This document shows positions 2,562 through 61,358 of a stretch of DNA of 64,000 nucleotides, piece by piece. The notes under the pieces are model-generated. The model had not been told where the DNA came from, did not search any database, and saw only the letters and a program-made list of their open reading frames with translations. This DNA comes from Rotaria socialis (Eukaryota), in contig CAJNYD010000459.1 of the NCBI GenBank assembly GCA_905331295.1, positions 350,975 through 414,974 of the forward strand. The letters run 5' to 3'. Positions within the stretch are counted from its first letter, which is position 1; each line of letters begins with the position of its first letter. The translations under genes and the position numbers were made by a program.

Positions 2562-5500
2562 TTTTTATTCTTATCTACTGAAATGAACTTAAAATTGACG
2601 ACATGCTTATTTTCCGTACTCCTAGTAATACCTCTCAGAAAAGAAAAATCTCGAACGAGAGAGAGGTCAGCACTAGATAGTTATTTGATCTGTTGATGAT
2701 GATATGAATACATCGTATATCAAGTGAAATACGAACAGCATGAACTCATGCCAATTTCAATCATTTTCATCATCATATCACTACAGGTATACGATATTAC
2801 ATAAAAGCATTCAATCTTTTTTTAGATATACTTTAGTGAGAAGACCAACAGAATATGTTGATACTATCTATCAGTAACGCCTAACAATTATTGATGTGTA
2901 TGTATATATACCATGCTGACGTACATGCAAATACTTGTTGATTACGTAGGTTTCATTCAAATTTCAATTCAACTGATCGTTATATTATGCATTCATAACA
3001 TTGCAGCAAACTGTGCCATTTTTTTTATATGTGTGTTGAAGTCAGTTTACATCGTACATTGATAAAATCAGTCAATCATACACAATTACTTTTCTTATGT
3101 AAAACTTTGCAACATATACATAAATATTGAATATTCATGCAGAACGCGTTCAGTATACATTGGAAATAGAGAATGACAAGAACGCAAAAAAATAAATTAT
3201 ATACACATAGCAGCAAGTAACTGTTTTTCTCTTTGCTATTCTCGAGAATTTTCCTATGTCTACTAGATAAACTAGTTAGAATTTGATGTGTAGTAGTTTT
3301 ATCAATTGAAATACGCGTAGATTTCGACTGATCAACAGCGTCAATTCTGAAGATGATCGCATTCAATTTACCAATAAAATTTCATCATAACTGCACAATA
3401 CAAGATAAAGCTTTTGCACGTATTATATAAATGTCAAATATTATCTGTTACATTTTATACTTTGATTTTGATAACATTATCTATTGCTTAAATTCTTTTC
3501 CCTTAATGTTAAGTTGATGATGTTGGCAACTATTAATGAAATACTGGCTAAAATTTCTGCAAATGTTTTTGAAGTATGGGTTCAATAAATTTAATTATAT
3601 CGAATTAAACGGTTACATCAACAAAAAATTTACTGCATGAGAAATATTTGCTGCTCATCAATCTCATACCAAATCGAGCGTTGTTGTTGTTGTTGTTGTT
3701 ATCATAGATTAGAGAACTATTCAATCGTAGACACTCTCGACATTGCATTATAGACAGTCTATGAACATCGATATGCTATAAGTACTGAAGCCTGTAATGA
3801 GCAAATGTAAATAGGTAGAAATTGAAATAGGATACATGTTGAACACAAAGTCGCTACACGATACGAGAAAGTTGTGCATGTTTCATCCATATTTGTGAAG
3901 TTGAAAATCTGAATTAAAAAGAAGATAGATTGAGTTTATTACAAGAAAAAACATGCGGAACAAATGAAAATAAACTGACAGCAATACAATGAGCGAACCG
4001 ATCGTTATATTTTAGAATTTATCAATATTATTCAGAAATATTTTAATTGCATCAACGCAAAATTTTAGGAGAGAATCCCTGGGGTTTATATCTCACTGCG
4101 TGAACTGAAAATAAACTCATACGATACTGCGAAGATTTTCTTCCAATCGAGTTTTGAAGTCGAATTACTGTCATCGACCTCAAGTTGCAATGTATTTCTA
4201 GATATTCGCTGATAAAATAGAATGTAGATCTGCAGATATTTGTATCGATATTTCTAATAATCTTGAAATATGTTCGCAATTTTTATCTGACAAAAATGTT
4301 GTTTTTTCAAATCGTGATATCGAATCTACACGTAATCTGGATTTTGCATCATGTTGGTGGAAGAAGAACATCCTTTTTGATTGAAACTTTGCGAGCATTC
4401 TAAAATTTCCTTAGTGAATAAATACTGACGAACTGGTTGAAATTCAATAACATAGACATTAGCAGTGTCCAAAGACATACACTGAAAAAAACTTCTTTTT
4501 TGACTTACCATGAACAAGAATAAATTATAGTGATACCTTTCATAACAATAAAATCTGATAGAATAAAACTTTTGAAGTCTTATGTAAATATTTTATAAAC
4601 TTTAAATAAAACTAATTGATCATCGAATCAAATCTTCAAAAATTGTATGATACAAACGATATTTCAAAATTAACTGTGACCAAAAAAGTTCATTTTATCG
4701 TGGTTCATTGTTAGTCAAACTGTTTGTTTTTGAATAGAGACATTCCTCACTGTACTAAATTCTCAATCATCCTTCCATAAACAAATCATTTGTTTCTTTG
4801 ATTCATCGACGCCAGATGTGTCAATGTCAACTGCAAAATTAAAACAGATCTCTGCGATGCGTCATCATAAGACAATTTAGCTTTGCATCATCATTCTAGT
4901 AGCTTTTAATATTATGCATCATGGTTAAAATTTTATAACAAATTTGGAAATAAATTATGATTCACAACTACCATGGCAACGGACTTCTGATTCAAATGTT
5001 TATATTATGTAACAAAGGTTATAATTCTGACTATGCAAAGTACAACTGAAGAGATACTTGAAATTCAAAACGATTCATAAACTAATTCAATATGAGTATT
5101 TGTTTTTTTTTCCTTTGCAAATCAATACTGTTACACGACATATTATAATAGAGAAAATTGCGTAATTTTGCAATAAATCTATCAATAGCATACATCAAAA
5201 ATAAAAATATTTGATATAAAATAAATTTCATTCGTCATCATCATCATCATCATCATCATAATAGACACGATCGACAAAATCTTAGCAACGTTTGTCAGAA
5301 TATTCAATACTTGAAAGAAAAACTAATAATATCAATACATGAGTCTATATCGCGATTTTTTAATATTTATCTCTATCCCAGTTATGCTAATATGTACGTG
5401 TCTTCATGTCAAAAGCAAATATGAACTAGCCCAATCTATGATATAGATCTTATATTTGTTATTTTTTGTTGTTCTTTTTATTTGTTACATCGAGAATCAA

Positions 5501-5896
5501 GAGTACCAGCAATATTGAGACTAACAAACAACTGTGAGAGATAGATAAAGAAGTAGAAGTAGAAGAAGAAGTAGAAAAAAACATATCAATAGAATCCATG
5601 AAACAAAGTATGAAACGATAAATTCAGTCGAATTTTTCCTATTGTCAAATGTGTTTTATCAAGACACAATTTGTTTTTTGTTTATCCGTTTTTTTATTGC
5701 CTGATATGTGAAATTCTATGAAGAGAAGAAAACGAGAAGAAAAAAAGAACAAACGCACATAATTTTTCGAGTACATGAGCTTGAAAAAGAAGAAAAATGC
5801 CAAAGATCAAAGAAAACAAACAAATGAAACGCCCTAAATTTGTTTTTTTTTTGTATTTTTTTCGTTTTTGGTTGGGATGGGGGAATGATGGGAACG

Positions 5897-5920
5897 AATT
5901 CGACACTTCGTATTCAATCC
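5897..5920 (-). promoter_or_regulatory. ODC 3' UTR element, perfect 24-nt complement of the 5' UTR element at 8803-8826
   Basis: mRNA sense GGAUUGAAUACGAAGUGUCGAAUU, about 108 nt after the stop codon and upstream of AATAAA (5698-5693). Confidence 0.7.
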
Positions 5921-6027
5921 AAATAGCCTAGAAAAGGGAATATCAGAGAAATGAACCATCATATTCGCTCATCATTTGGATGGACATATGAATAGAAACG
6001 ATATGAAGGTCTTTGTTGCTCGATTAA

Positions 6028-8753
6028 CTATTGACTCGTGACAACGGCTGCTTCTTCAATGAAATCTTCAGGTATCCATGGTAGCATATCATCTTCAACT
6101 TCATTTGAGCAATCACATGAATTCATACGCATAATACATGTATCAACTTGATGTTTACGTGGAATAAGCTGAAATGCTGCTTTTACCGAATCCCTAAGAA
6201 AGCAAAAAAAACAAAAATTTTAAAAACATATTTTTCCAAAAAACTTAAGTTTTATAGAATTAAAATTTTCCATTTCTGATTTAAAAAGAAAGATTGGCTC
6301 AGACTTCCAAAGAAGGCATTATTATTTAAAATATGACTGGCCTCACATGTGAGATATTCGAGTGGAAACTGCGTAGCGGAATAAGCATCATCACCGCCAA
6401 TCAAACTGTCCGAACCTAGATTCGAACGTAGGTTGTACTGTTTTATATCTTATTAAACAATTCAACCATATACAGTGATAAACTACGCACCAGAAATGTT
6501 TGGACATAAAGTAGATTGGTTTGCCATATGGAAGACCATTGAATTGAACAGCAGCTGATATTGTATAAGCACCCATATTTTTCCATAAAATCCAATCACC
6601 AATATTTAATTTTGGTATTTGTATAGATTTATTAATACAATCAAGACCATCACATGTCGGTCCCCAAATTGATGTTGTGTATTTTTCATTTAAATCACCC
6701 TATATAAATAGAAGAAAACAAAAATGATGAGAACAAATTTAGAGAAGTTTATTTAATAGATCAAGTTGATTAATACCAACCTTAGTCAATACATGAGGTT
6801 CGGGTACATAGTGATCATAAAGAACACAATTGAATGAACCATAAACACCATCATTGATGTAATACATATATTTCAAGTTTCCTGTTTCTATTTTACAGAA
6901 AAAAAAGGGTATTATTCAGAAAGTTTCTCTAGTAAGAACTTCAGCAGAATAAACTCAGATTTTTAGATTGAGATAGCAATAAGATTATTTCTAACATTCA
7001 CAGAGATGATTAAGTTCTATGAACTGCAATTTAGATTTGATCGGTAAAGAGAATGAAATTTATTTTCATAAACATAACATTAACAATTCGATCCAATGTA
7101 TCGGTACTTGAAAATTGTACAGATTTTCAAAACAAAATATAATAAATTATCAATAAATATTGAAAGACAAAATTTTTATTTCGTGCAAGAAAATTAGTTT
7201 TCTTCATTGTTACTGTCAAAATTTGCAAGCTCAACAATGACTCATTTTTATTTAACAAGTAGTCTCTCAACTATTGCTGTTAACTTCTATTTATTAGGAT
7301 TAATTTTTCTGAAATAAAGCGTTAATTTTCTCTCAATTGAGTTATTTTTCTTTAATCACATAGGATTCATCAATCTATTTAAATACATTTTCGATCGTAT
7401 AATTTGATATCTCTTTCGTAGCAATCAGACAGTTTGTTTCTGCATCATAATCGATATCTTTTTTGGGTATTTACAAAAGAAAGCTCAATAATATATACTT
7501 TCCATTACGAATAAACTAACCTGAATCGACCATTTCTCGTAAAGCAATTACATTTGTTGCTAATGCATAAGCTGAAGCAACGTAATATCGACCTGGTTCA
7601 GCTATGATTTTAATATGACCATCATCAGGAAAATGTTCCTCAAGTGCTTGATTAACAGCTACTGAAATTTCAGTAAAATAATCTTCAGTTCCTGTATTTC
7701 CAGGAAAACCACCACCAATATCAAGTAAATGCATATCAAATCCTAATTTGTTTCCATAGTTCATAATCATGCGAGCATTTTGAATAGCATCAACGAATGC
7801 GTTGCTTGTCATTTGACCACTACCGCAATGAAAACTAAAAAAAAACACAGAACGAAATGATACAGTAATTCATTGGGCATTATTATACCTGACGCCAATG
7901 ATTCTCATGTCAATTTCTTGAGCTTTATCAATTAATTTACGTGCTGTGTTCATGTCAGCACCAAATTTCATTGAAAATCGGCAAACAGCATTTGAATCAT
8001 CCGTTACAATACGTAAAACAAGTCTAACAAAAGAAATATAATAATAATTTCTCGAAACACATAAATATCTACATACTTAGCATTTGGATATATCTGCTTA
8101 ATTTTCATTAATTCTTGTTCATTGTCGAATGTCATAATTTCAACACCAACTTCTTGAGCATACCGTATGTAAGATGATTGCTTGCATGGATTAGCATAAA
8201 TGATACGATCGGCTATTAAAAAAGCAACGATATAACAGATTAAATATTAAAATAAAAAATAATTTCTTACCTGACGCTCCTAAATCCATAACTTTTTTAA
8301 TTTCTCCCTAAAAAATGAATTCATAAGATTATTTTCAAGAAAAGATAATTAAAATCAATTTACTTTGCTTGCACAATCAAAACCAGCTCCAAGATAGGCA
8401 AGAAGTTTGATAACATTGATATCATCATTACATTTAACAGCTAAGTAAAGAAAGAAAAACATAATAACTCTATATTGTCTGAATAAAAAAATTATAATAA
8501 ACTAACCATAATGTGGTTTAACACGAGGCATTAAAGTAATCCAACGAATATGTTTATTGCACACATCTTCAAGATCGACAGCATAAAACGGTTCGACTTC
8601 ATCTTTCTAAAATATATTGAAGATAGTTATTAAATATAAGCATACTTTTGCTTTTAATGATATTACAAGTAGATCGATTTTCTTTTGGATGAATTCTTCA
8701 GCTGTATATTGATTTTTAGTAACAACAATTGAATTATCTTTAATTAGATGCAT
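6028..8753 (-). CDS. ODC1: Ornithine decarboxylase (PLP fold type III), catalytic residues intact, multi-exon
   Basis: Starts MHLIKDNS (ATG 8753-8751). Motifs PHYAVKCND (PLP lysine), [58 protein letters not shown] (catalytic Cys), NMGAYT. The last exon ends VVTSQ-TAG (6030-6028). Confidence 0.96.
6292..6402 (-). ncRNA. SNORD14: U14 (SNORD14) box C/D snoRNA in the last ODC intron
   Basis: 7-bp terminal stem GAUUGGC/GCCAAUC, box C GUGAUGA (6394-6388), box D CUGA (6302-6299), U14 domain A-like CGCAGUUUCCAC (6373-6362) and domain B-like CCUUCUUUGGAAGU (6316-6303) directly before box D. Same strand as the host gene. Confidence 0.88.
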
Positions 8754-8802
8754 TTTTATTTTCTAATTAGAAGAAACTAGTTTGAAAGAGGGACTGCTGA
8801 TA

Positions 8803-8826
8803 GGATTGAATACGAAGTGTCGAATT
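8803..8826 (-). promoter_or_regulatory. ODC 5' UTR element, perfect 24-nt complement of the 3' UTR element at 5897-5920
   Basis: mRNA sense AAUUCGACACUUCGUAUUCAAUCC, starting 1 nt after a leader-intron acceptor and ending 49 nt before the main AUG. Confidence 0.7.
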
Positions 8827-8936
8827 ACTATAAATATTAAAATGATAATTGAATTAAAAAAGAAAAGAAATTGTGATTTAAACTTACGTCGACGATAAAA
8901 GGGAGTTGTTCAGCGATTAAATTCCAATGGCGGGTG

Positions 8937-9145
8937 CTAGCGAAGTGGACCCGGCGTCCAAGGAAATTCAGGCAAGACAGATGATGAACAATCGTGTACC
9001 AATAACAAACAGAAACTTTGATCAGTTAAGTCCTAATGAATTTTGTAGCAAAACGAAAATTATAAATTTCATAAAAAACTAATTTGCAACAAACCTTAAT
9101 TGAAGCACCCCACCCTTTGTCGTCGATACTAGCTTTGGACAATAT
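8937..9145 (-). CDS. Non-AUG upstream ORF (uCC-like regulatory peptide) in the ODC 5' leader, two exons
   Basis: After removing a 62-nt GT-AG intron (9094-9033): ILSKASIDDKGWGASIK|DLTDQSFCLLLVHDCSSSVLPEFPWTPGPLR-TAG, about 48 codons from AUA (9145) or one fewer from UUG (9142). Resembles the AZIN1/ODC uCC (LSDQ...EPPWEPS). No AUG in the spliced leader. Confidence 0.8.
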
Positions 9146-9530
9146 TTTCGGTGTCTTGCGAAAGACGAAAAGAAGTAACCTCCCACTTGATTACACACAA
9201 AAAGTGACTGTAAACTTTTGTATGTGTATTTGTGTTATAGAAACGGACGATAGTAGTCAGACGAAATATGTTGCAGATCAAAAGTAAAATTTGCAATATA
9301 CGTCGAAAGCGAAAATGAGACTATAAAAGAGAGAGAAAAAAATTCAGATATAAAGTAGAGAAAGACGCATCGAGAAAAGACAGAAACAAAGTATAGAAGA
9401 TTAGTAGTGACAATATTGTATAAGAAATAATTTTACAGTTGTCTATTATTTTATTTTTCTGTATAAATGATAACGTTTTTAATCAAAATAAAAAAACTAG
9501 TCATGTCAAGAAGTTGACTTGAGGCTTATA

Positions 9531-9596
9531 ATGACGCATGACGTATAGCGGTTGTTGGATATAAAAATGATAGGATAATGGCGGGCAAAAGCCAAT
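9531..9596. promoter_or_regulatory. Candidate ODC proximal promoter motifs
   Basis: Tandem ATGACG CRE/ATF-like half sites (ATGACGCATGACGTA), a GC-rich GGCGGGCAAAA and a CCAAT clustered about 300 bp upstream of the leader exon. Motif matches only. Confidence 0.25.
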
Positions 9597-10702
9597 AGAA
9601 TTTTTTTCCTTTTTTCTACTACAGTAAAATCTGTCATTCTTATCGTTTTTAGTTAATTGTTTTTAACATAAATGAATAAAAGAAAATTTTGAAAAATTTT
9701 GAGTTCTTTTCGAACTCGGCGATATCCTAGACACCAATTGGTCTAGCTAACAAGGTACATAATTGTTTGTATGTATCACTTAGCTATAAGAATACTTATA
9801 TAATCGAATCGTAGGCGTTTTTCAATAGACCAAATCAAGTTCTTTTCTATGAATGTTATAATCCTGTAGGAATGAACATAATTCCTACAGGAGAAAACAT
9901 TGTCATATACAATATAAATATAAATCGAAAATAGTTTTAAAATTAAATAATATTCCTTGAAGCATGTCTAGCTTTTCTTTAAACTGCAATTGGGCAAACA
10001 AAGATCAACATCCATAACTCGTATACTCATTGCATAAACCTATATGTATACGCGTTGAATATTCTATCAATTAATGTTTTCTGATGATGTCTGCATTATC
10101 GAATATTTTAATAATAAATATTGAAAATATTATTGTCAATTATCATCAATAATTATTAATTGATCGATTTTATCCTTCTCGTCAACAATCCATCGTTTTA
10201 ATTTTTTTTATATATGTTCCATCATGGCTGATCTTATTTCCCAAAAAAGACTAAAAATCTTAACTATTACTTACAGATTACACTATGCTTTTGCTAGTTC
10301 ATTTTGTATTTTAGATGAACTCATTCGCTTTCAATATTCTGCGTGTTTTTATTGAAAAAAAAACAGAAAATATAATATTTGCATACCGTTTGTCTATAAA
10401 TGGCACTTAGCAACAACGCAAATAAATTAGAAAAAACACTTCATTTATCTATTTGTTACTGTTGTATGTAGAAAAACAAAAGAAAGCAGGATGTTGTTTC
10501 TTTGCTAGTTATTACTTTTGAAAAGGGAAAAACACTTAATTTCACTCGCATAGTCAAATACAAGAAAATTTGTTTCTGTTATTTTACATAAGTATGATCA
10601 CATGAATTAATGCTCACTATAATTTATTGGAGCTTTGACTCTTCTTCTCATCTACTTGGTGATATAGAATGTTCTAATTTACATCTATTTTACAAGTTCT
10701 TG

Positions 10703-10927
10703 TTTGAAAAAAAATGATTTACCTTCTAAGAATGGTGCAATAATTATGAAATAGAATAAGAATAAATTCCTGTGGATAGGCGGCGGACCCCTTAGGCTTG
10801 GGGAGGCTCATTTAATTTGAAAAAAATGATTTAACTATTAAGAATGATGCAATAATTATGAAATAGAATAAGAATACATCCCTGTGCATAGGCGGCGGAC
10901 CCCTTAGGCTTGGGGAGGCTCATTTAA
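10703..10927. repeat. Tandem duplication of a ~113-bp unit that includes the left end of the adjacent MITE
   Basis: 10703-10815 and 10816-10927 are near-identical, both containing TAGGCGGCGGACCCCTTAGGCTTGGGGAGGCTCA. Confidence 0.85.
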
Positions 10928-11058
10928 TTTGAAAAAAACGTTGTAGAAACAGATCATCTATTAGTATCAGATTTGTTTTTAATTTCATCTTTCATCATCC
11001 TTATCATATGAAAAAAATTTTGAGCCTCCCCTACATTGAAATCGTTCCGCCGCCATTG
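10887..11058. mobile_element. hAT-family MITE (172 bp)
   Basis: TIRs CATAGGCGGCGGA / TCCGCCGCCATTG with 8-bp TSD TCCCTGTG (10879-10886 and 11059-11066). Confidence 0.85.
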
Positions 11059-11890: not shown

Positions 11891-12132
11891 TAAAATACTG
11901 TATACTCTATTGCAACTCTCTCTCTCTTTATATACTGTAGAAGAATGCACTGGAAATTATTGTAAATACTACTATCTATATTTGGAAATCATGACAAATA
12001 ACTTTCAAACATATTTTATATAATAACTGATTTTGTTAATCAAAAAACAGGAAAATAAATATTATGTTTTATGAAATTTTATTTGTTTGCAATAAATATG
12101 TGTTTGTAAGTTCTTTCATTATTTTTCTTCAG

Positions 12133-14672
12133 ATGTCTATCGAAAACACAATACTTTCGATTGATAATCAACTATCAACATCGTTCAATGAAATCGCTGA
12201 TATTGAAGTTGAAAATTTCTTTGGTTGCTATTTATTAAATAGTTTGAATCCAGCTTGTAAAGGTCGGACTTATATTGGTTTTACTGTTGATCCTCATCGA
12301 CGAATAAAACAACATAATAAAGGCAAAGATTTTGGAGGAGCAAAAAAGACCAGTGGAAAAGGACCATGGTAAGTAAAACAAATGTTTTCTGTTTGTTTTT
12401 CATTAAAAACACTTCAACACTATTAGGGAAATGGTCTTAATTGTACATGGCTTTCCAAATGAAATAACAGCATTACGCGTAAGAGTGAACATTAGGTATA
12501 AAGGATTAGAAAATATTCGTGATTTTTATAGTTTGAATGGGCATGGCAAAATCCTGAACAATCTATACGTCTTAAACATTTAAATTTATCAAAAAACAAA
12601 AGGAAACACACTTTACAATTTAAATTGAAAATTCTTGCTGAAATGCTTTGTATTGGTCCATGGGCACGTTTGCCACTTACAGTTCGATGGTTATCAGACA
12701 AAAAACAAGTACTAGAACGAATGCCACCATTGCATATGCCTATAACAAGTGGACCAATTAATGTTTCCAAACAAACGAATACAATACCATCGAAACGAAA
12801 AAAAACGAACAAGCAAACTTTACCAATAAATGACGATTCACGATGTTTTAGTTCTTGTTCGTTATGTAACAATATTATACAAGTATGTAAAAGGCTATTG
12901 TCTATTCTATTCAATACTGTGAAGTCCAACAAGTGAAATACGAGAGTTTATTTTAGTAGCATAAGCACATCGTAAAAAAACTGCAGCCGATAGATGAGAG
13001 TAATCTGTAGTTTTTTTAATTTTTGAACATAAAAAGTCGAGAACAATTATTATCGCTTCAAGATTGATTGATTTCGAAAGAGGAACTGTTGAAAAATTGT
13101 TATTCAATTTTAAATGCAATTATCTTTTTTGTTTTAAATTAAAGAAAGAAATTTTTTTTAAGTATACAAACAAACTACAAAGTCAAAGTTAATTAGGAAA
13201 GTATAGATAATGAACTCTCAATGGGATGTCCTCATTCAGCAGAGCATAATTTGACGTTAGCAGTTTTTTTCTTTTATTTCGTTTTAAATTAATAATTTCT
13301 TATCGAAGAATAACATCATCAAACTATTTCAGAAATGTTACCAACTCTTTTTTATCGGCTGTTTATCATTTGAAGAATCATTAATCAAATACCATTGCTA
13401 GACATTTTCGATGAAATAGCTTTATATTTTAGTAAATTTTATTTTTGATACTCTCGTGCAAAGAAAATAGAAAAAGTCTGGTGATCGATTTCAATATTTG
13501 TTTTTGAATACAACTACGCAGAAAACTTATAGAAACCTTGAAATTTCATTTCTGTTTATTTTTCATCAACATTCACATTAAATCAAACAGAAAATATGCT
13601 CAACCTTTTGATGTCGAAATTTCTTCTAAGAGTAGAAGAACTTTGGTTTCGCCAAGGACATAAAAGGTCACAGACGAATAATCAATTATCTAAGATTTCA
13701 CTGAACAATATAAAATTCAATAGTTGCAGAGTTTGATAGAATGTGTTTAAACTTTGTAGGATTCTTCATGTAACTCTCTGATTACCATTTTGAGTCTACG
13801 TCATAGTATAGATTTGATTAAATTGCCATTTTATTTGCAGTTAGATAAGAAGATTTATTGTAAGCGTAACTTTCTAATGCGAAAGTAGTGACATAATTCT
13901 GTACGTCTTCAAGTACTAAGATAATCTACAAATTCTGATTGAACTCTGAACACGTAATACTTTCTTGTTCACCTGATAAGCATTCGTCGTAATATTATCT
14001 AACGATATCGTACGTTGAGTATTAGAATAATAATGAATAGGTAACAATATATAGTCATTGTGAAAGCATAATAAATTATTTGAAAAATAAAATAGTTGTG
14101 TACGATTAGTAATCCCCTCGCGAACAATCTGTAGAATAGATAATTTCAACTTTGTTGTTTTAGAAAGTATCGAATTATTTCCTTGTATATAATCTTGAGA
14201 ATTTAATGTTCATCTAGTAGATCAAAATTCCGTTTTCATAAAATCGAAAAGTTTTGCAGTATATTTTTTTTTTGTTACCAAAAATGTAGTGCATCGAAGG
14301 TAAGAGAAAAAAAATAGTATGTTTAAACAGTATGATAAAATAAGACTAGTAAATAAAGGCAATGATAAAGCGTCATTTGTGGAGACGAAAATATAAATAT
14401 TTTAATATCGGACTTTGTTCTTATTTTAGCCACCAATGCACGTATCTTGCCCAAAATGTTCTATATCTTTTCATATTATATGTTTATCAAAATGTTTTCT
14501 TAAGAATACTGAAGAACATTATATTATTCCTATTGATGGTTTATGTCCTTCTTGTAAAAAGAATTTACTATGGGGTGAAATTATACAAAATAAATATACA
14601 AATAGATCATGTGCATTACCAATAGTCACACATTCTGATGAATCAGATGACGATGACGATGTTATTCAGTAA
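12133..14672 (+). CDS. SLX1: Structure-specific endonuclease subunit SLX1 (GIY-YIG nuclease with C-terminal RING/PHD), 4 exons
   Basis: FFGCYLL...[17 protein letters not shown]...[34 protein letters not shown], followed by C-terminal CSLC...CPKC..FHIICL...CPSC..LLWGEII. Long intron ~12883-14429. Confidence 0.94.
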
Positions 14673-19617: not shown

Positions 19618-22334
19618 ATTAAATAAATATAACGATCCAAATCAATGTTAACGTATGACGGCTGTTATTTACTAGGCGTTTCGTCGTATTCTGGTTTTAT
19701 TTTTTTTTTGTTGCCGGTTCTTTTAAAAAGTATTTTTCGTGTGATTTATCATTCTTCGTCAATAACGTAAAACTTGCGAGTGTGATGAGGCGACGAATGA
19801 AATATGCAAGCAACAACAATACGGAAAATAAACCAACGAATAATAATAAACGAATCGATACTTCCTTTTATTAATTCCAATATAAAGTAGAAATAAATTT
19901 ATCTAAAGTAAAGGTTAAAAAGCGATAGAAACCGTAGTGTCTTACAGCAAGATTTGTATGCATGCAAATTATTGCACAGCGATATATTTTTTTCACAGCG
20001 TTTTTACTTTATACGTTGTTCTGCCTATCAACAGAATGTTTTGACCCTGATGAGATGTAATGTTGACAGCGGTATGAAAGAGAGAAGAAGAAAAGAAAAA
20101 AGACCATTGCGAGTTTGTTGTAAGAAAACACAAGTCGTACACATAAAACATCATTGTTAGGTTACTGTGACCTATCATTAATTATTTCCCATAGATAAAA
20201 GTAGATTGGTAATTATTATTAACTAGCAAAGTCTATGATTGATTTCTAAATCTATTGCCTAGTATCTTGAAACAAAATGTGGATATAATTTTTTCCTCAT
20301 AATTTCTTTAATGAGATTAGAATTTTCTTTTCTTTTCGCTATTTATTCGGATAGCATTTATCGACATGCGATAAAAAAAACATCTCTATTTTTATTAGAA
20401 AAAAAAAGATAATGATATTTATTAACAGTTTGAGTTATTTAATTACACCGTTAAAATGCACGTAATAGAATACGTTCTTCTACTTTCGACTTGTTAGTAT
20501 CAAAGAGCTATGATCCTTGGTAATGTATTGAGTTTTCTGAAAGAAGAATTCAGGTTAGGACACGGTGACTTTACAATGATTGAGTGTAATCACATTAAAA
20601 TTATTTGATCTAATTGTAGACCTTGGTTTTATTGTAAATAGAAAACATGAAATATAAGGAAGCAGTTTTTATTTGTTCAGATCGGTTTACTTTGTGATTC
20701 GTTTTCTATTTTAAAAACAATCGATCAGAAATTAAAACAGCTAAAACTTTGAAATTGTTTATGATGTTTACAAGGAAAATTTTATAATACTATTAATTAT
20801 ATAATAAGGGCTCAATTGTCAGGTATTGTGCTTAGTTTGATGTCTATGGCAAGTATGACTTTTCTTTTATTTAAGTAGATCTATAGAGAATGTAAGATGG
20901 CTTTTTCTTCTCGAAAAAAATCTAACTCAAATTTTAATTAACAAAGAGGGTCACTGGTGGTAAACTTTTGTCTGTTACAGCTGGAGAACAGTCTTGTTAA
21001 TAAGAAAAAATGGCACTCTTATATCACAAAATGAAAATAAAAATTGACTATCATTCATATTTAATTTAATTTCGACTAATGGATATTTGTTATATAATTA
21101 TTCGATTTTATTTGTTTACTTTTTAGAAAATTAAAAGTAGGAAAAATTTCAGGAAAAATAAAACAGAAAGTATATCGATTAAAAATACAATTAATTATCA
21201 TAGAATTAATTTTGAATTCTTAGAACTCTACTGTTATGATCTCTCAGAGAGAAAAAAAGCATGTTAGTGTGCATGGACAGGAGAATTTATTTTCATGATT
21301 GAAACAATTAAGATAACTGAGAAACTTATTAGAACTGAAATTATTTCATTTGATATATATATATATAAGAAGCTTAAAATTAATAAATCACTATTCTTTT
21401 CTTTTCTTACTTGAAACTAGAAGGCCAATTGAAGAAATCTTGCATGACTCAATTTTATTTTTGATTACTAAATTAAATTTGCTAACTAAAAACAAATAAA
21501 GCAGTAATTTGATTTTTAATCGAATAGCAAAACTAAAGTCTATTTTGTTCTACTATCATTGAAGCATTTTATGTTTTTGCGAGGCAGACATTGTTTACTG
21601 ATTATTATTTTCAATGAAATTCTATCCACATAAAACATCAAATATGATGTCTGTTTCCTTACTAAAGTATATATTCGGTATCAATTTATTCAAGAATAAA
21701 TTATCATGTATAATAAAGCGAATGATGTTCGTCTGCTTAACGCAGAGTTTGTTACTCGTTCGTCCACGAAATCAATTCATTGGTTTAATACTGCTTAGAA
21801 TTGTTAATGGATGTGTTGATAGCTGTCAATATCGCTGGTTGCTAATACCAAAAAAGAAAATCTGCATCATTTCGGTTTATTTTAAAAGCTGTTAGCATAC
21901 TAATGAATTATTTCATGATTTCGGATATTTCATTGTTCACTAGATAACTCTAAGTATACAGAGAAATCTATATAAAAATATGTTATTTTTACTTGTAAAA
22001 ACATTAGTGAAATCACGGATTTATATCATGCATTAGGATGGTAAATAAAACTTCTAATGTCATGTATCAATGTAATGTTCGTTATTTGTTCTTGATACTT
22101 CAAGCAAATTTTCATGCATGATATAACTCACATTATTGCATAATAAAACGGGCCATGATGTGTAAAATCGAAGTCCTGTTTCTTTTATTGTATTTATCTA
22201 GCTGGCAAGTTGAATTAAATATTAATATATGATAATCATAAAAAAAATTGAATTTTGTAAACTAAAAAGGCCTGGCATATATGTGACCATATTCGAATAA
22301 AACCAATATCGAACATATAATTTTTTTGATATTT

Positions 22335-23089
22335 CGGTTGGCCGTAGAACGGCCGAAAGGAAAAATATCGAAAGGAAAAATACCGAAAGAAAAACACCGA
22401 AAGAAAAATATCGAAAGGGAAAAATGTCGAATGGATAAATGTCGAAGAGAAAAATGTCGAAAAGGAAAAATGTCGAAAGAAAAATATCGAAAAGGAAAAA
22501 TGTCGAAAACAGAAAAGATAAAAAAAGCGACGTCTACTAAATGAAGGTTCTAATAGTTTGTTGTTCATTGTTGTTGATCTGATTATTCCATTGGTTTGAC
22601 AATGATAACCCTTGATACTATTGATAAGTAATATCTTATGAAAACTAGCTAAAATAGGCGTAAAATAGTATACAACGATTAAAATTTTATCATGATGACT
22701 ACAGCTTGCTCATTTTTATCTGGTGAGAATCATCCGCCAACTCCAGTTATTTCATTTATTCAGTCGTAAAAAGGAAAACCTTTCCTTGTATCAGATAAAT
22801 ATATTTTCAAACTGAATACAACAGCAACAACTAGTAAATATTGGATATGTGTATTTTTCTTTATAACTCTTATTTATCTATGATCTATGCTATGATGCTA
22901 TTATGATTTCAAGAATAAAAACATCTTAGTGCAAATTTTCGATATTTTTCCCTTTCGATATTTTTTCTTTCGATATTTTTCCTTCGACATTTTTCTTTCG
23001 ACATTTTTCCTTTCGTCATTTTCTATATTTTTCCTTTCGATATTTTTCCCTTTCGACATTTTTCCTTTCGGTCTTTCTACGGCACACCG
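22335..23089. mobile_element. Foldback-type non-autonomous DNA transposon with modular TIRs
   Basis: Termini CGGTTGGCCGTAGAA / TTCTACGGCACACCG, each followed by ~150-170 bp of tandem 15-16 nt CGAAAGGGAAAAAT(A/G)T units in inverted orientation. Flanking direct repeat ATATTT (22329-22334, 23090-23095). Confidence 0.8.
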
Positions 23090-23254
23090 ATATTTCAATG
23101 GAACTCTGCCGATGTCTATTGTATTCGCTATCGAATAAATAGAAAAAAAATAATAGCCAGACAAGAAAAAAGTATCAAGGTGAATAGTTGTCATGTGGAT
23201 GTAAAAATAGTTCTAGCAATTCAAAATCTCGAACCACTCAAGTGTTGATGAGTA

Positions 23255-23511
23255 GGAATGGATGGAAAAAGGCAGAAAGGGAAAATGTCGAAAGGGAAAA
23301 ATATCGAAAATAAAAATGTCGAAAACAAGAATATGAGGTGAAAATGAACATTCAAGATTGGACCTGTGGGTAAGAAAGACTTGTACTTCAACGTACTCTC
23401 ATTTTCAGCATTTCTATTCATCTAAATTTGTAAAATTTTTGTTTTCGATATTTATATTTTCGACATTTTTCCCTTTCGATATTTTTCCTTTCTGCCTTTT
23501 TCCGCCATACC
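23255..23511. mobile_element. MITE sharing the CGAAAGGGAAAAAT subterminal repeat
   Basis: TIRs GGAATGGATGGAAAAAGGCAGAAAGG / CCTTTCTGCCTTTTTCCGCCATACC with flanking direct repeat ATGAGTA (23248-23254, 23512-23518). Confidence 0.8.
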
Positions 23512-42016: not shown

Positions 42017-42482
42017 TTGAGGAAGGTCATTATAATTGTATTATTTTGTTTTTTCTTAATTATTTTTCGATTAGAATAATTAATTATTTTAAGATGTTTA
42101 GGAGATATTTTTCTTCTTCTTCAGTTTTATTTTATTTGGTGTTATGTTTTTGTTTTTACTATTTTACAATACATATCTGACTGTTCTTTTTCTTTTTCTT
42201 TTTCTTTTTCTTTTAATAGCGGAACGTAATGTCAAAACCTGTAAGTTTAATCTGCCAGTATTACCGACGCTGTCATTCCTTTCTACTATTACAAGAAAGA
42301 AAAAGAATAGTCAGATACGTATTGGTAAACAGTAAAAACAAAAATAAAACTGAAGAAGGAGAAAGATATCTCCAAAACGTCTTAAAATAATAAATTATTC
42401 TAATCGGAAAATAATTAAGAAAAAACATTAAAACAAAACGAAGAGAAAAAACAAAATAATACAAGTACTACGTCTTTCTCAA
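42017..42482. mobile_element. Degenerate MITE with long inverted arms
   Basis: ~42045-42200 is an imperfect reverse complement of ~42296-42465 (e.g. TTCTTAATTATTTTTCGATTAGAATAATT vs AATTATTCTAATCGGAAAATAATTAAGAA). TSD not clear. Confidence 0.6.
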
Positions 42483-49689: not shown

Positions 49690-52617
49690 TTTGATTGTTC
49701 GTTTCGAGTATTTTGTAATAAGCGAGAAGGAAAATAAAAGAGAGTCGAAGAGATTTACTGGCATCTATCCTATAAAATGCTGAAGTTTATACTTTAAGAA
49801 TTTTCTAAGACTGAAATCGCTTTCTACACTCCCACTACTATTACCTACCACTATTGTTATATAAAGCAAACTAATGAAATCAATCAAGAATATAGTTAAT
49901 ACTTTAGGGGACAAATTCACGTAAGCATTCCGTAATTATTCAAAAGGCAAATCAGTAGATGAGCTTCTTTTTTTTCTTTTTAGAAACTATTCAATGGTTC
50001 ATTGGTTGAACACAATAAAGAAACAGAAAAAAAGTCGAGCAACACTGTGAACGAGCGTGGTGGTGCCAAAGATGACTACATGAAAGATAAATGAGATGAA
50101 GATAATCATGCTGCTTTCAAAAAGAAGTTCATAAATAGAAGACTACCCACTAATACACGTGCAAGTGCGCATAAACATTGATGTATACATGTTTCTATAC
50201 ATAGAAATATTTAATATCGCTCTTGTTTGCTTTGAGTTGTTGCTACTATGTTTTTATTGGAGTCTCCTTCTATTCACGAAATGGTCAAGATATTGTATTT
50301 GATTGCTTATAATTGGAGTTCATTTTTTAATTTAAAAAAATTATGAAAGTTGAATAAAAATACAAACTGAAGCTAAAAGCGTACTATTCACGAGCAACAA
50401 TATTCAGCAATGAAGTAATTATTTATTTCATAAGATTTATTTTATAAATTTCGATATCACCGTATTGGTGTTAGTTCAAAAATGTAACGAGTATATTCGT
50501 GTCACGTATTCATCAGTGTGATCTAGTTGTGAACTAGTTTGTGTAAGTCACGAGCTTTAAATTACAAAAATCATTTATTTATGGCTTTTGACTATACTAT
50601 ATATTTATCATAAAAAGAAAATTCTTCACAATTAGTAAATGACTAGCAATACTTGTTGTTTTTCGTATTTTAGCCAATTATGACGTTAAATTCTAGCATG
50701 TTAAAATCATATTCAAATACTTCAACAAATGATAGTTATGGATAGAGAAATATTCATATAGAAAAGGAGTGCCATCAAATATTTTCCATACAATGACTAA
50801 GTATTCTAGAATACTCAAAAGCACTTCCGCCAGTATTTGAATCAATTAGAAATAACAAAAAATAACTTTTAAAAAATTCTTTTTTTTTATGAAAAATGAA
50901 TTCATCTGAATAATGTCCAACGCATTCGAATGATGTTTTTGTTTATTGATAAAACAGATTATTCCTACAGATACTTAATGTGATAATGAAGAATTTAAAT
51001 ATTTAATTTAATGCAGTATTTTTCAGTGTGTTTTTAATGATTGCGGAGAAATATTCAATAGCTAGCACTTCTATGGTTCTTATGTTTTACAATGATATCC
51101 TAGAAAAATGCAAGAAAAAGCTATATTTATAAGCTTTAGTTTTCATACGGTTTAATAGTGAATTATAAAAATTTCTCATGATGGCAACGTATTTCTGAAC
51201 AAATAAAATATCAAAGACATCATTGGTCTACTGTGGAATAATACTCCCATATTCTGTCTATTAGAATATAATCTATATTTAGATATTATGCCATTTGATA
51301 TGACGACATTAATGGCAAGTATTGATTACTACTCAATATAACGCATTTTTTGTTTATAAATTTCTTTCAAGGTCTATTCTCATCATATTTCTTTTCGTTT
51401 CATGCAACTAGAGATCATGTAACATTTGAGTTCTAATTCTGTACGTAAGATGAATCATATTATGTATGATCTATAGAAAATATCGAGTATTTCGATATAA
51501 GTTTGTGTTAGCATCATTAATTCATTCAAGTTGATGTTGCTTATTATGAAATATTAAAACTTCCATTAGTCATAATAACTATCGATTGTATGGAACGGCT
51601 AAGATCAATATGAACTGACTCTTTAAAACTAATCTATAAAATAGTGAAGTATATATATGGCATTGAAATGGCATGGATGCTCATGTATCCTTCCTCATAG
51701 GTTAGCTATGATTTTAGATACACTTATCAAATTTAATCAAGAGACAATCAAAATCATGTTTACTAGATAAATATTGAAACAATGAAAAGTATCGATATAT
51801 AGTAGATGTGATCAACGCTTTACGTCAAGTATATATCTTCCATATTTTATGATGTACTAATATTATTAATTCTAGGTCATAGATATTTGCTAAAACGGAA
51901 AAAGCATTTCATAATTTTTATCAACATATGTTCTATTATTTCTATTCTCTTTCAATTAAAGTTTTGAATACAAATATCCTTTCAGATGGCCTACTGAGCA
52001 TTCTATTAATTATATATATCTGAAACGTTCAGCTGCATATGCATTAAATTGATAGAATATTTCTTGATGTTACAAATTTATTAGAGCTGTCGACTTTTAG
52101 AGTCATATTTTTGTCACAGACGATTATTAATCATCATGGGTTTTAACCAGACGAAGTTTTAATACTCGTGATCTTCACATTAGTTTGAGCAGGTAAATTA
52201 AATGTCAATATTTTAAATTTAGTGTTCATTTTCCTCTTGCACGTTGCGCGTTGATAATGGAACGACATATTAAAACAAATTCACTATCATTTTCTCATCA
52301 AACGATGAGCACTGCTTTAATGTCATACTTCTGACGTTTTAGAATTTTGTTAGGGTATTATCAATAATTTCACTTTCGAGTCACGTTTTTTTCCACGATT
52401 TTTTATTATGGTTGAATCATGTATTTATCTTCCGTGCATATGAAATACTATCAATATATGCAACAATTTTTGGTATTCCCTCGAACATTAAACTGACTTG
52501 AATCAGATACAATCAAGTTACTGTCTGGAATTGTATGCCAATATCTGAATACTGTCTACACTCGTATTTTAACTCTGAAATTGATTTTATGATAATTTAC
52601 TAATATTGTTGAACCAA

Positions 52618-52981
52618 CCCAAGCAGACAAACTTTTTCAAAAACGTGTTTAAACACTCAATCGGGAACCGCGATTGTGGGTCATTAACGCTCATTAATAA
52701 GACGCAAGAAACGCGTTTTTACGCAGAATTCTCACTTTCCAAACGTGAAAACGAATAAAAACTCCAATTCCGAGCGTTTGAACGAATTGGTTTTTAATTT
52801 ATCGAATAATTGTGCTGTTAAACGCTCGGAATTGGAGTTTTTATTCGTTTTCACGTTTGGAAAGTGAGAATTCTGCGTAAAAACGCGTTTCTTGCGTCTT
52901 ATTAATGAGCGTTAATGACCCACAATCGCGGTTCCCGATTGAGTGTTTAAACAAGTTTTTGAAAACGTTTGTCTGCCTGGG
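52618..52981. mobile_element. Palindromic MITE with CCC...GGG (CMC-like) termini and ~160-bp near-perfect arms
   Basis: 52618-~52779 is nearly the exact reverse complement of ~52820-52981, with a ~40-nt spacer. Confidence 0.85.
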
Positions 52982-53679
52982 TAGGCTTGATTGCATTTTC
53001 CTCTCAGTTATTCATTCATTTCAATGAGTCTATACTAGGCATCCACTCAATTTAAACTCAAAATGTTTAGATATTTTAGTACGGCTATCATAATCTCTCT
53101 CGGAGAGGAACTTATTAAGAAATAAATTAAAGGAGACCTCGAAAAACATTTCTCTTACAAAACATGTACTTTATTATTCACATAACAAATACGATAGTTG
53201 TTTATTAATATATGTACGTTAAAAATAAATAGCTCAAACTATATTGTGTATTTAAAAGCGACTATATTTCGCAATACATTACAAGCGTTTTATTGAGTAT
53301 ATTGTTCAGAATAAAAATCTGATTATATAAAATAAAATTAGTCGAAACGGTATCAAAGGCGGTATAAAAATAAGATTAGTGGATTTAGTGAAGCTGTCGC
53401 TTTATATTCTAACTGAGATGAGTATAAAAGTTAATTTGATTGAAAAATTTCAAGCCATAGGCATAATCATCGATGTCAGTAGCAAAAACAAACCAATTCA
53501 ATAGCATTGCTGCTTTCGAGATATTTTTGTCGGAATTCAACATAAATGATTTTTCGAATGCCATAAAAAAAGCTTCTTTAGTTAGAACAAAATAGATTAT
53601 TGTAACATATAATGATATGATTTTGGTTGTGTTAGGTAAATTTTCGAATGATTTTCCTTGATTATCAGTTCGTAATCTT

Positions 53680-53910: not shown

Positions 53911-53931
53911 CATTTCTTTTTGTTTGATCTC

Positions 53932-54637
53932 TGGTATATCCCTACATACTTCTACACGTCGCGTAGTACTTCTAACTAGTAATGCTCGTCTGGTCTCCTT
54001 GGTAGAATCAATGTCGGTAGACGAGGCTATCAAATATATAAGAACATTGTAGACGAGATCGAGGATCATATGCATGTGTATTTATTCTGTCAGTTGAAAA
54101 ACCGATATAGATAGTAAAAATGGGAAATGGTATTCATATATTTACATATTTCTATAAGTCTCGATGTACTTCAACCTATTTCTAAAGTGTCGCTGGAAAT
54201 TGCTATGTATTTTAAGTTCCAAAACACCTCCTAATCAATGACACCACTTTGGAAATAACCCATGTAATAAAAACCGCATGAAAATCGGCGGTTAACCGCG
54301 ATTTTACCGGCCCGGTTACCGGCTCCCATTACCGTAGAACGGATAAATACCGCGGTTTACCGCAAAAATTGATCGGGTATTCGCAACATGGGAAGTTGAA
54401 GTACATCGAAACTTATAGAAATATGTAAATATATGAATACCATTTCCCACTTTTACTATCTATATCGGTTTTTCAACTGACAGAATAAATGCACATGCAC
54501 ATGATCCTCGACCTCTTCTGCAATGCTCTCATATATTTGATCGCCTCGTCTACCGACATTGATTCTACCAAGGAAACCAGACAGCATTACTAGTTAGAAG
54601 TACTATGAGACATGTAGAAGTATGTAGAGATATACCA
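53932..54637. repeat. Long inverted repeat (~245-bp arms, ~220-bp spacer)
   Basis: 53932-54175 is the reverse complement of 54396-54637 with scattered mismatches. Confidence 0.9.
54259..54391. mobile_element. Mini CMC-type MITE nested in the inverted-repeat spacer
   Basis: Termini CCCATGT / ACATGGG, ACCGC/GCGGT internal repeats, 2-bp TSD AA. Confidence 0.7.
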
Positions 54638-55539
54638 AAAATATTAGAAAATAAAATACGTACTTATCATTGCTGCACAAAGATTGTTATTCTTTCTATT
54701 CTCGGTTCAAACTAACTTTTTGATGCCAACCAACATGACAATTGATAAAATCAATCATTTAAATTGAAAACCAATCATATAATATATCAAACGAATGATT
54801 TGTTGTCGTTTTCATACTGTACAAGAATATTTACTATCTGAAAATGCTGCAACGAAAAGAAAACAGAGAGAATCTTGTTTAAAAAAAAGCAAAAGTTGCA
54901 TACTGATTCGAACTACTTCGAAAAAAATAAATGAAAATGAAAATGAAAATGAAGATAAAAATAAAAATAAAAATACCTGTACATTATACTCAAATTTGGT
55001 TCTACATAATGCCGTTGTGCCCATCGGTGTCATCATATTGATGTATCTAAAGAGAGAACCTTCTGTCTTTTGTCTTTCTTCACCGTACGATTTATAAAAA
55101 TTTTCTTACAATACTGATACTTTGTAGTACAAATAGATCAAGTAGATCAAATAGTTTAGATTTTAAAAGCCAAATACTAAAATGGGCAAGTGATCATAAA
55201 GATTTTTCCGCTTCTTTTTCATTATTTTTCTCTTCGACAGATGTCGTTATATTCAAGTACCCCTATATCGATTGATAACATTGAATATTTCATAGGAAAA
55301 ATAGAGCAGAGAAAATATGTGAAAAAAAAGAAAAAAGTGAAATAGTTTTAGTCAAGTATTTTCTTTTATAGCTGACCTATTTGAATAAGCAACGTCATAC
55401 TATGCTATGTTTAGATATTTATTTGTTTCTTGTAGACGAATAATTAAAAATAATTGTCTTGTTAAATTTATTGTTTCAGAACTAATTTATCGTTTACGTT
55501 CAGCTTCTTATTATCGTTTTGTTTCGTTTTCCGAATCAA

Positions 55540-59477: not shown

Positions 59478-61358
59478 CAAGGGGGAAAGTGCAGGTTTGG
59501 AACCCCCAGCACCTCAGCACCTTTTCAGCACCTTCAGCACCTTTTCTATAGTGAGATTTACTTCAGTGGTATGGAAATAAATCGGGAAAACTACCTTCAT
59601 TTTCAATAGTAGAGGTGAATTTGTTTTTGAATTATTCACTGAATCTGAATGAGAATTATTTCAGACTAAAAAAGCCAGCAGAAAAAGAAAAACATCCTTC
59701 GAAAGTAATCGTATATCAAATTGCAAAATGATATATCAAAAAGTTTGATCCTTCTTTTATTAGTGTGACAACTAACAATACGCTCTGATTATTTTTCAGA
59801 AGTTTACTTTTCATTTTATCACCATTTCATTTGTGCAGCTTCTGCTTTCTCTGAGTTATCAAAAAAAAACATTGTACGAAATCTCATACTCCTTGGTAAA
59901 AAAAGCCTGCACATAATTTTATTAGCTTGAAAATCATCATTGAATTCTGATTATTTTCCAATTTTATTTTGTATTTCATGAAAAATCAATTTTTAACACC
60001 TGGAGCCCCCCTCAAGGGTCGAGAAACCTTTTCTTTGCTGGTTTTAATATAGATAGTTATATTTCCATAAAGTTAAGCTTTCTGATTACAATTATTGTCT
60101 CAGTTTTGAATTTCATTGAACAATAAGAAAGATATGAAGCACTCTCTCAGAGCGTTAAAAACAATTTCTGACCTGAAGACCCATGAATATTCGATTTATA
60201 CTGTTTGAAAATAGGTCTGTTAAATGTACAATGTTTTTCTCTGTCAGAATATATAAGAACGACCTAGATATTCAATCTTTTTTCTCTCGATAAATTTTAA
60301 ATACCAGCCCCGATCGGGTCATACAGGTACAAATACTGCTTTTCTCAGTCTTATGAAGCATAGTTTTTCGAGGTGTACCAGTAAGATTTTCTTATCGGGT
60401 ACGTAATTAAATGTGCTCTTTCTAATGAAAGAGTTTTCAACTTAAAACTCGATGCAATGTAAAGCGTTTTCGCTGCAATACTAGTGTTGGAATCGAATTT
60501 CTGTCATTGCTTGCCTGATACTTGATAGTTTCAAACAGAATAATTCCTACGCGACTGAATATAAATATTATATTTGTTTTAAGCACAAAATCTAATTCGA
60601 TTTAATTATTTCTACAAATTTTGTTTTCGGTCAGATTTTTACGTCTGGTCCCCTTCAGGCTCATCTGAAAACAAAATATTTTATTCAAAACAACTAGTTG
60701 ATTGATTATTAATTGATCTACTTTATCTCAAACACCATTCCCAAAGTTTGGAAACTATTCGCATTGTCCACATGGCTTTTGGGGNAAAAACATTCTGTAT
60801 CGAAGTGGTCTATTTTCAAACAGTATAAAACGAATATTCGTGGACCTTTGAGCCAATAGCTGTTTTTAAGTCTTCCCGAGAGTGCTTCAGATCTTTCTTA
60901 GTATCCAATGAATTTTAAAATCTAAGATGATATTTGTGATCAGGAAACTTAACTTTATCGAAATATAACTACTCGCACTAAAATTAGAATGAAACTTTTT
61001 TTCGATCCTTGAGAGTTAGGTACCCCGGATGTTAAAAACTGATTTTTCATAAAATACACAGTAAACTCCTGGAAAATAATCGTAATTCAATGATGACTCT
61101 TAAGTTAATAACATTAAGTGCAGGTTTTTTAGTGTTCAGGTTTCTAATTTGGCACGCCTCTGATTTGATTATGGAATTAGTGTATTCAACAAGATTGTGG
61201 AAAAACAATGAGTTTAGCAGAGAATTAACTCATCATGTCGTATACTACTCCTTTATTTTTCTATAGCTTTTCGGCAACTACTAACACCTTTAGCATCTTT
61301 CAGCACCGTCAGCACTTTATAATAAATTTTGGTGCTTGGAGCCAGCACTTCCCCCCTG
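59478..61358. mobile_element. hAT element (1.9 kb, internally decayed) nested in the CACTG element
   Basis: TIRs CAAGGGGGAAAGTGC / GCACTTCCCCCCTG, CAGCAC subterminal repeats at both ends, 8-bp TSD CTTAAAGG (59470-59477, 59470 copy repeated at 61359-61366). Confidence 0.88.

Follow-up and report, generated by a model that had tools for sequence, protein, structure and literature searches.

Cellular and viral RNAs with paired ends

In viruses, base pairing between the ends of one RNA closes a loop, as in flavivirus cyclization, the panhandles of rotavirus and influenza, and the contacts of 3' cap-independent translation elements (3'CITEs) with the 5' untranslated region (UTR). The hbs mRNA of Bacillus subtilis is likewise closed by a direct 14-bp pair of its 5' and 3' UTRs (PMC5737220, available part). 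In eukaryotes, direct contacts between the two UTRs are called very uncommon in the accessible text of a study of p53 (PMC10158990). That study concerns the 5'CS/3'CS duplex of p53 mRNA (Chen and Kastan 2010), a direct 5'-3' UTR pairing in a cellular animal mRNA that is tied to translational control. Here we describe a long-range helix that is predicted to join the two UTRs of the ornithine decarboxylase (ODC) mRNA of bdelloid rotifers. The analysis started from a 64-kb stretch of Rotaria socialis DNA (contig CAJNYD010000459.1), and the whole of this stretch is called the window below.

The ODC helix differs from each of these systems. Compared with p53, it is about 32 bp long and nearly perfect, covaries across a whole class and two paralog lineages, and lies at a fixed distance below a conserved upstream open reading frame (uORF). 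In the helix of yeast HAC1, the partner of the 5' UTR is an intron that is removed by Ire1 splicing (PMC5114014, available part), whereas the partner in ODC is permanent 3' UTR, so that release must be by unwinding and not by excision. In contrast to the viral and hbs pairs, the ODC helix belongs to a capped, spliced, polyadenylated and nuclear-encoded animal mRNA, and its arms are internal, not terminal; a relationship in sequence is not expected either.

The leader also resembles a described element. ODC homologs and AZIN1 carry an upstream conserved coding region (uCC), a conserved non-AUG uORF of about 47 codons with a proline/tryptophan-rich C-terminus (PMC2811004 and PMC9082881, both as far as available). 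Adjacent prolines are nearly universal in uCCs according to the accessible text of PMC2811004, whereas the bdelloid uORF ends in W-x-P-G-P-L-R/S, without adjacent prolines or a terminal P-S. In addition, the bdelloid uORF is followed by the long-range helix; the available part of PMC2811004 mentions neither secondary structure nor a rotifer. A literature search that did not cover most subscription papers found no report of UTR-UTR pairing in ODC mRNA or in rotifers.

Two complementary arms kept across bdelloid ODC genes

The gene encodes a bdelloid ODC, and its largest exon matches a cluster named Rotaria magnacalcarata at 97%. The exon model consists of twelve exons with GT-AG introns and yields a protein of 455 aa that is 98.2% identical to that cluster over 455 aa. 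It contains the motifs HYAVKCN and GPTCDGLD, which we take to hold the catalytic lysine and cysteine. A first-pass annotation of the window had reported that positions 8803-8826 are the exact reverse complement of 5897-5920, and direct comparison confirmed the match in 24 of 24 positions. With up to three mismatches allowed, the 24-mer occurs at only two places in the window, and 100 dinucleotide shuffles gave no match. The paired region extends beyond this 24-bp core (Table 1), with three mismatches in the extension, and we now put the predicted helix at about 32 bp. The other long exact inverted matches among those listed for the window either form the arms of closely spaced inverted-repeat elements or belong to simple repeats.

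Both arms had been expected to be exonic, and spliced contigs indeed carry both. In contigs from three runs (three studies), position 8888 is joined to 8827 and the sequence continues through 5897-5920 to 3' ends at 5683, 5487 or 5462; these runs are labelled 'RNA?' but show spliced joints, and three of the four runs were read. The first base of the 5' arm is the second base of exon 3, and the arm ends 49 nt before the ODC AUG (8753), as originally placed. The start of the 3' arm is 107 nt past the ODC stop (earlier given as about 108) and upstream of the AATAAA at 5698-5693. Neither AATAAA nor ATTAAA was found between stop and 3' arm in any of 11 sequences, which agrees with the earlier view that polyadenylation does not precede this arm. 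On the mRNA, the 5' arm lies approximately 370 nt from the 5' end and the 3' arm approximately 200 nt from the poly(A) signal. Two related organisms have five differences each in exon 3, none of them listed inside the 5' arm, and the organism of the window has a second ODC paralog, as seen in DNA and RNA contigs.

A profile search with 56 aligned bdelloid ODCs gave 58 metagenome loci (numbered with the prefix L). Both UTRs are available for 15 bdelloid loci, nine of them intronless transcripts and six genomic. The pairing is kept in all 15 and in the window, in the same register and over 23-32 bp, with predicted arm-arm energies of -40.3 to -48.8 kcal/mol (11 distinct rows of 16). The 5' arm is present in six further loci that hold only the 5' end, and the 3' arm in three that hold only the 3' end; L046, L048 and L053 hold neither end, and L047 and L052 fall outside the analysis. 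Profiles of the arms matched the bdelloid loci at the two expected places only (E at most 8.4e-4; next best 1.6), with two copies in the 64 kb of the window and two per genomic locus of 7-12 kb. Within the window and the fetched loci, the arms are therefore not a dispersed repeat, and the earlier argument against transposon terminal inverted repeats holds there.

In a quick protein tree, Rotaria and Adineta proteins are found in each of the two well-supported ODC paralog clades, and both clades include helix-bearing loci. Such loci also occur in two unresolved deep branches beside Didymodactylos, which was placed by protein and contributed no DNA to the comparison of arms. Because of this distribution, the element is likely to predate the duplication behind the two paralogs. 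Bdelloids descend from an ancient tetraploidy.

The same observations bear on the idea that the match is due to chance or to inverted repeats at the DNA level (ends of a transposon, or repeats homogenised by gene conversion), with no function in RNA. The window is rich in inverted-repeat elements, and single changes of the G-U and A-C types occur in similar numbers, so that wobble bias does not prove the strand of pairing. However, each locus has two copies and no more, located in every case at the same places of the ODC mRNA, and the arms are kept in both paralog clades and in the deep branches, where the flanking UTR is unalignable. A G-U at the outermost pair also persists in 5 of 11 rows, indicating that the arms have not been homogenised. 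We regard this explanation as largely refuted and highly improbable.

Covariation and predicted folding of the helix

In a MAFFT alignment of eight transcripts, standard pairs made up 93.3% of 255 cells (shuffled mean 85.2), and 16 of 32 pairs showed a double-sided change (shuffled 5.9). Neither figure was reached in 500 shuffles. When the partner was slid by one to three columns, pairing fell to 25-38%, but the structure on which pairs were counted had been named from the same sequences, a choice that biases the comparison against the slid versions. In a set of ten rows that contains the window, 284 of 296 cells were paired, a value matched by 9 of 100,000 row shuffles. Double-sided changes were Watson-Crick in 22 of 25 cases; among 19 single-sided changes, nine retained G-U and ten broke the pair. 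Own arms had a mean energy of -45.1 kcal/mol, compared to -33.5 kcal/mol for mixed arms (0 of 100,000 permutations; two of the rows are near-identical), and the own partner ranked best in 6 of 11 rows. For the 5' arm of L008 combined with the 3' arm of the window, for example, -24 kcal/mol is predicted, compared to -42 to -49 kcal/mol for cognate arms. Twelve of the 32 pairs never vary, mostly at the outer end of the helix: the outer 9 bp are near-invariant across both paralog clades, and the inner part co-varies.

When whole mRNAs were folded, the helix was part of the minimum-energy structure in nine of nine, with a gain of -14.0 to -25.7 kcal/mol over the best helix-free fold. Its pair probability was 0.91-0.95 in the four mRNAs for which it was computed, and the remaining five were judged by energy alone. 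A kissing-loop formed by small hairpins within the arms is not supported: the 5' hairpin has approximately 0 to -1.6 kcal/mol and is broken in 5 of 14 sequences, and the 3' hairpin varies between -0.8 and -6.1 kcal/mol. An Rfam search of positions 4500-11000 (E ≤ 1) returned SNORD14 in the last intron as its sole match, and the arms match no family.

From the aligned sequences we conclude, with high confidence, that a conserved long-range helix linking the 5' UTR with the 3' UTR is a real element of bdelloid ODC mRNA. The end-to-end pairing predicted by the first-pass annotation is thus supported by arms that are kept in orthologues and paralogues with compensatory changes.

Among 26 non-bdelloid ODC transcripts, five had UTRs too short to score. 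The helix was not seen in any of the 21 scorable mRNAs (mostly monogonont-like), which scored 19-35, whereas bdelloid mRNAs scored 56-70 (9/9) with own shuffle maxima of 30-45. Two of the 21 scored two points above the maximum of their own 60 shuffles, and several have short 3' ends. The arm profiles gave no match in the non-bdelloid transcripts, most of which form one clade; L042 clusters with Brachionus calyciflorus. No ODC relatives were found in the prokaryote genome contigs searched. In viral contigs, a degenerate arm pattern matched six times, never with both arms, and four of these matches are two near-identical pairs of one AT-rich stretch; we attribute them to chance.

The leader and a possible brake on scanning

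The ODC mRNA is likely to be trans-spliced to a spliced leader. In transcript L008 (1-11), a foreign leader stands where its genomic match L012 (3925-3964) has a splice acceptor, which is replaced in the transcript by the leader end CTTACCAAGAG. Of the eight transcripts shown, four start with ACCAAGAG or CAAGAG. These starts match the spliced-leader trans-splicing of bdelloids (PMC1925144, available part).

None of nine spliced leaders contains an upstream AUG. All 15 leaders examined (two near-identical) hold a uORF of 43-48 codons with the W-x-P-G-P-L-R/S end. Its opening AUA-UUG, preceded by A at -3, is identical in all 15 (one of them is cut short upstream), and conservation places the putative start of the window uORF at the AUA at 9145 or the UUG at 9142. 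Indels come in threes, and the end of the frame shows third-position bias (0.04/0.06/0.16). P-W occurs at the end in 12 of 15 leaders, and P-P in none. Judged by these features, the uORF is a variant of the uCC of ODC homologs and would work like it, with putative polyamine-dependent repression. Monogonont-like leaders (L022-L029, L034, L037 and L040) share other conserved blocks (e.g. RAFVLG and FETQKSS in some frames); they lack an obvious P-W uORF, which suggests a different leader control.

Between uORF and helix lies the motif (AU)CGCUGAACAA. All 15 leaders share its invariant CGCUGAA, 28 nt ahead of the first base of exon 3. The distance from the uORF stop to exon 3 and the arm is 49 nt in 12 of 15, and 46, 48 and 52 nt in the rest. 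The distance from the 5' arm to the ODC AUG, however, varies from 37 to 80 nt, and that from the ODC stop to the 3' arm from 34 to 105 nt in relatives. Since the outer spacings are constant and 12 pairs invariant while the spacings to AUG and stop vary, the outer face of the predicted helix is fixed in geometry and nearly fixed in sequence, and its inner face drifts. The first-pass description had located the helix by the ODC AUG; in the aligned leaders it instead keeps a fixed distance to the uORF stop and CGCUGAA. Separately, L002, L004, L008, L009, L045, L056 and L057 share a short motif, (U)CAACGAAU, in the stretch from the stop to the 3' arm, and the window has a diverged form at approximately 5960-5990 (minus strand).

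A conserved local fold of the leader was not found (consensus fold -7.4 kcal/mol; window segments with z of 0.11 and 1.84), which leaves the long-range pair as the sole strong structure predicted on the scanning path. Several other candidates in this region were rejected. A second short frame (I-A-E-Q-x-P-F-x-x-x-stop) ends at the helix base with invariant stop and length, yet it has no codon-position bias (0.18/0.17/0.15) and is closed upstream in L001 and L002. Readthrough of the uORF to the in-frame UGA in CGCUGA is unsupported, given loss of the frame in L055 and its pre-emption in L005. The CUG of the motif as start of an N-terminal extension has a weak context and is out of frame in the window, L003, L005, L007 and L016. 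No pairing partner of CGCUGAACAA in the mRNA was common to all nine mRNAs. Reinitiation elements of the termination upstream ribosome-binding site (TURBS) type tether the ribosome through complementarity to 18S rRNA. In 16 non-rotifer 18S stretches, neither motif nor arms had a consistent complementary site above shuffles; the U14 control gave one consistent site in 9 of 16, itself within the shuffle range, which makes this a weak test.

The position of the motif and the arm could also point to a nuclear role. The pairing would then act on the pre-mRNA, where it would mask or present the 3' splice site next to the 5' arm and couple leader-intron excision to 3'-end completion, and CGCUGAACAA would be a splicing enhancer or the seat of an exon-junction complex. 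The intron directly before the 5' arm is kept in position in all seven genomic relatives examined, the motif lies 28 to 19 nt upstream of the junction, and conserved long-range pairings have been tied to pre-mRNA processing in human genes (PMC8052449, available part). On the other hand, both arms remain in the mature mRNA, the spliced form was found in all nine transcript loci and in the window contigs, and transcription reaches the 3' arm 1.5-3 kb after the short leader intron. A nuclear role is therefore quite improbable.

We favour a role in translation. Scanning passes through hairpins of around -30 kcal/mol and is blocked by hairpins of around -50 to -60 kcal/mol, and RNA duplexes are stabilised by polyamines. 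With -40 to -49 kcal/mol, the ODC helix falls between these energies and hence into a tunable range. Furthermore, the long-range leader helix of HAC1 blocks scanning (PMC5114014, available part), and initiation from codons other than AUG is raised by downstream structures or stalled ribosomes, for example at the AZIN1 uORF (PMC9082881, available part). For these reasons we propose, at about even confidence, that the helix around the whole coding sequence is a tunable scanning barrier that, together with the non-AUG uORF, holds ODC translation down.

According to this proposal, 43S complexes leaking past the weak uORF start would meet the 5' arm, which they would have to open on their way to the ODC AUG, and would pause there. 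If a ribosome stalls at the uORF end, the 49-nt spacer between it and the helix would accommodate about one small subunit, and pausing might thereby feed a queue that raises initiation at the uORF. High polyamines would tighten both steps, by the stall at W-x-P-G-P and by a more stable helix, and at low polyamines helicase-assisted scanning would get through. Ribosomes on the coding sequence cross neither arm, so the helix may re-form after each passage. With its partner in the 3' UTR, the brake would depend on the state of the 3' end of the mRNA.

The opposite effect was considered as well. The helix might help translation by holding the ODC stop next to the ODC AUG, so that finishing ribosomes re-enter the loop and bypass the repressive uORF. 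Its inner end lies 34-105 nt from the stop and approximately 5-50 nt from the AUG, and the loop excludes the uORF. ODC 3' UTRs are reported to relieve repression by the 5' UTR in mammals and Neurospora. However, the inner spacings vary widely where the outer ones are fixed, L004 and L008 have very little single strand before the AUG, and ribosomes of the first round would still have -40 to -49 kcal/mol to open. We consider re-entry clearly unlikely.

Several points weigh against the brake and the evidence behind it. The aligned rows are related, and the controls on pair counts correct for kinship incompletely. The helix lies approximately 190 nt below the putative uORF start, whereas the optimum for direct stimulation is 14-16 nt (PMC9082881, available part), which is why a queue has to be assumed. 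A local hairpin would be a simpler barrier, so that the long range needs an extra reason. The fixed spacing of the helix is equally a fixed spacing to the splice junction, and the adjacent prolines that typify uCCs are missing from the uORF. Finally, the 12 invariant pairs go beyond what pairing explains and suggest a partner that reads their sequence.

This last point is best explained if a protein or nuclease (Staufen-, ADAR-, Dicer- or p53-type RPL26/nucleolin-like) uses the helix as a double-stranded RNA landing site and thereby sets the stability or translation of ODC mRNA. The helix would then persist at low scanning flux and couple repression to decay or storage. Dicer and Argonaute families are expanded in bdelloids. 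A nearly perfect duplex of approximately 30 bp would suit such a role, as would outer 9 bp that are almost invariant in both clades above a co-varying inner part. The p53 5'/3' duplex is a protein-binding platform (PMC10158990), and the hbs pairing modulates cleavage by RNase Y (PMC5737220), each as given in the available text. A landing site would, however, leave the fixed distance to the uORF stop unexplained, and no base changes are listed in the 5' arm in four runs, in contigs that drop rare variants. We consider it somewhat unlikely.

Other features of the window and significance

Table 1. Position of the helix arms and other features of the ODC gene in the window.
Feature	Position	Strand	Basis
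Long-range helix, 5' arm (exact core at 8803-8826)	8796..8826	-	start of leader exon 3; exonic in spliced contigs
Long-range helix, 3' arm in the 3' UTR (exact core at 5897-5920)	5897..5927	-	contigs spliced to coding exons cover the arm
Ornithine decarboxylase coding sequence, 455 aa, 10 coding exons, inside the helix loop	6028..8753	-	exon model and contig joints
Leader intron, 3' splice site 1 nt before the 5' arm	8828..8887	-	joint 8827/8888 in contigs; same position in relatives
AATAAA polyadenylation signal, approximately 200 nt beyond the 3' arm	5693..5698	-	one spliced contig ends at 5683, two reach 5462-5487
Polypyrimidine tract and AG acceptor, likely spliced-leader trans-splice site	9321..9345	-	sequence; contig starts 9315-9322
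Conserved non-AUG uORF (uCC-like), 48 codons, FPWTPGPLR-stop	8937..9145	-	split by intron 9094-9033
Nucleotide-conserved motif (AU)CGCUGAACAA, CGCUGAA(C)AA	8906..8917	-	15/15 leaders
U14 (SNORD14) box C/D snoRNA-like sequence, last ODC intron, not part of the helix	6295..6399	-	Rfam 51 bits, E 8e-9

The introns of the gene hold further elements. The score of the U14-like small nucleolar RNA (snoRNA) is below the gathering score of 64 bits. The sequence also occurs in the last ODC intron of L016 (6650-6752), L056 (1505-1606) and L057 (1477-1578), that is, in one paralog clade, with no match in L011, L012 or L045. The usual hosts of U14 are hsc70 and ribosomal-protein genes, not ODC. Another ODC intron (6888-7520, minus strand) measures 633 nt compared to 53-81 nt for most; it is partly covered by RNA-labelled contigs (7102-7347 in X10), has no Rfam match and could host an undescribed small RNA.

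Beyond ODC, the window contains long inverted-repeat elements that resemble miniature inverted-repeat transposable elements (MITEs) or foldback elements at 52614-52985, 53912-54657, 42036-42464, 59900-61130 and 22326-23511; one such element of the window has a 134-nt perfect arm pair and a 40-nt loop. A 112-nt tandem repeat in two copies, 94% identical, lies upstream of ODC (10708-10931). Also upstream and divergent, exons at 12040-12936 (plus strand) presumably encode a GIY-YIG nuclease resembling SLX1, as judged by its motifs. Apart from the window, at least 51 GTDB bacterial genome records (L065-L115; approximately 460 estimated) have contaminant contigs with eukaryotic 18S rRNA.

As a tentative possibility, uORF and helix together may form a two-part polyamine sensor: a stalling uORF and, one subunit away, a long-range helix whose partner lies in the 3' UTR, a clasp that would gate entry into the loop. 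Bdelloids would then have used a viral-style switch since before their genome duplication.

Direct 5'UTR-3'UTR pairing is routine in RNA viruses, and few well-supported cases are known among cellular eukaryotic mRNAs. The present helix has been seen in bdelloid rotifers only, and it sits in ODC, a classic gene of translational control, directly below a uCC-like uORF. A single construct can therefore address how a 3' UTR alters scanning ribosomes in the 5' leader, and the natural compensatory variation in bdelloid ODC provides mutate-and-rescue pairs ready-made by evolution.

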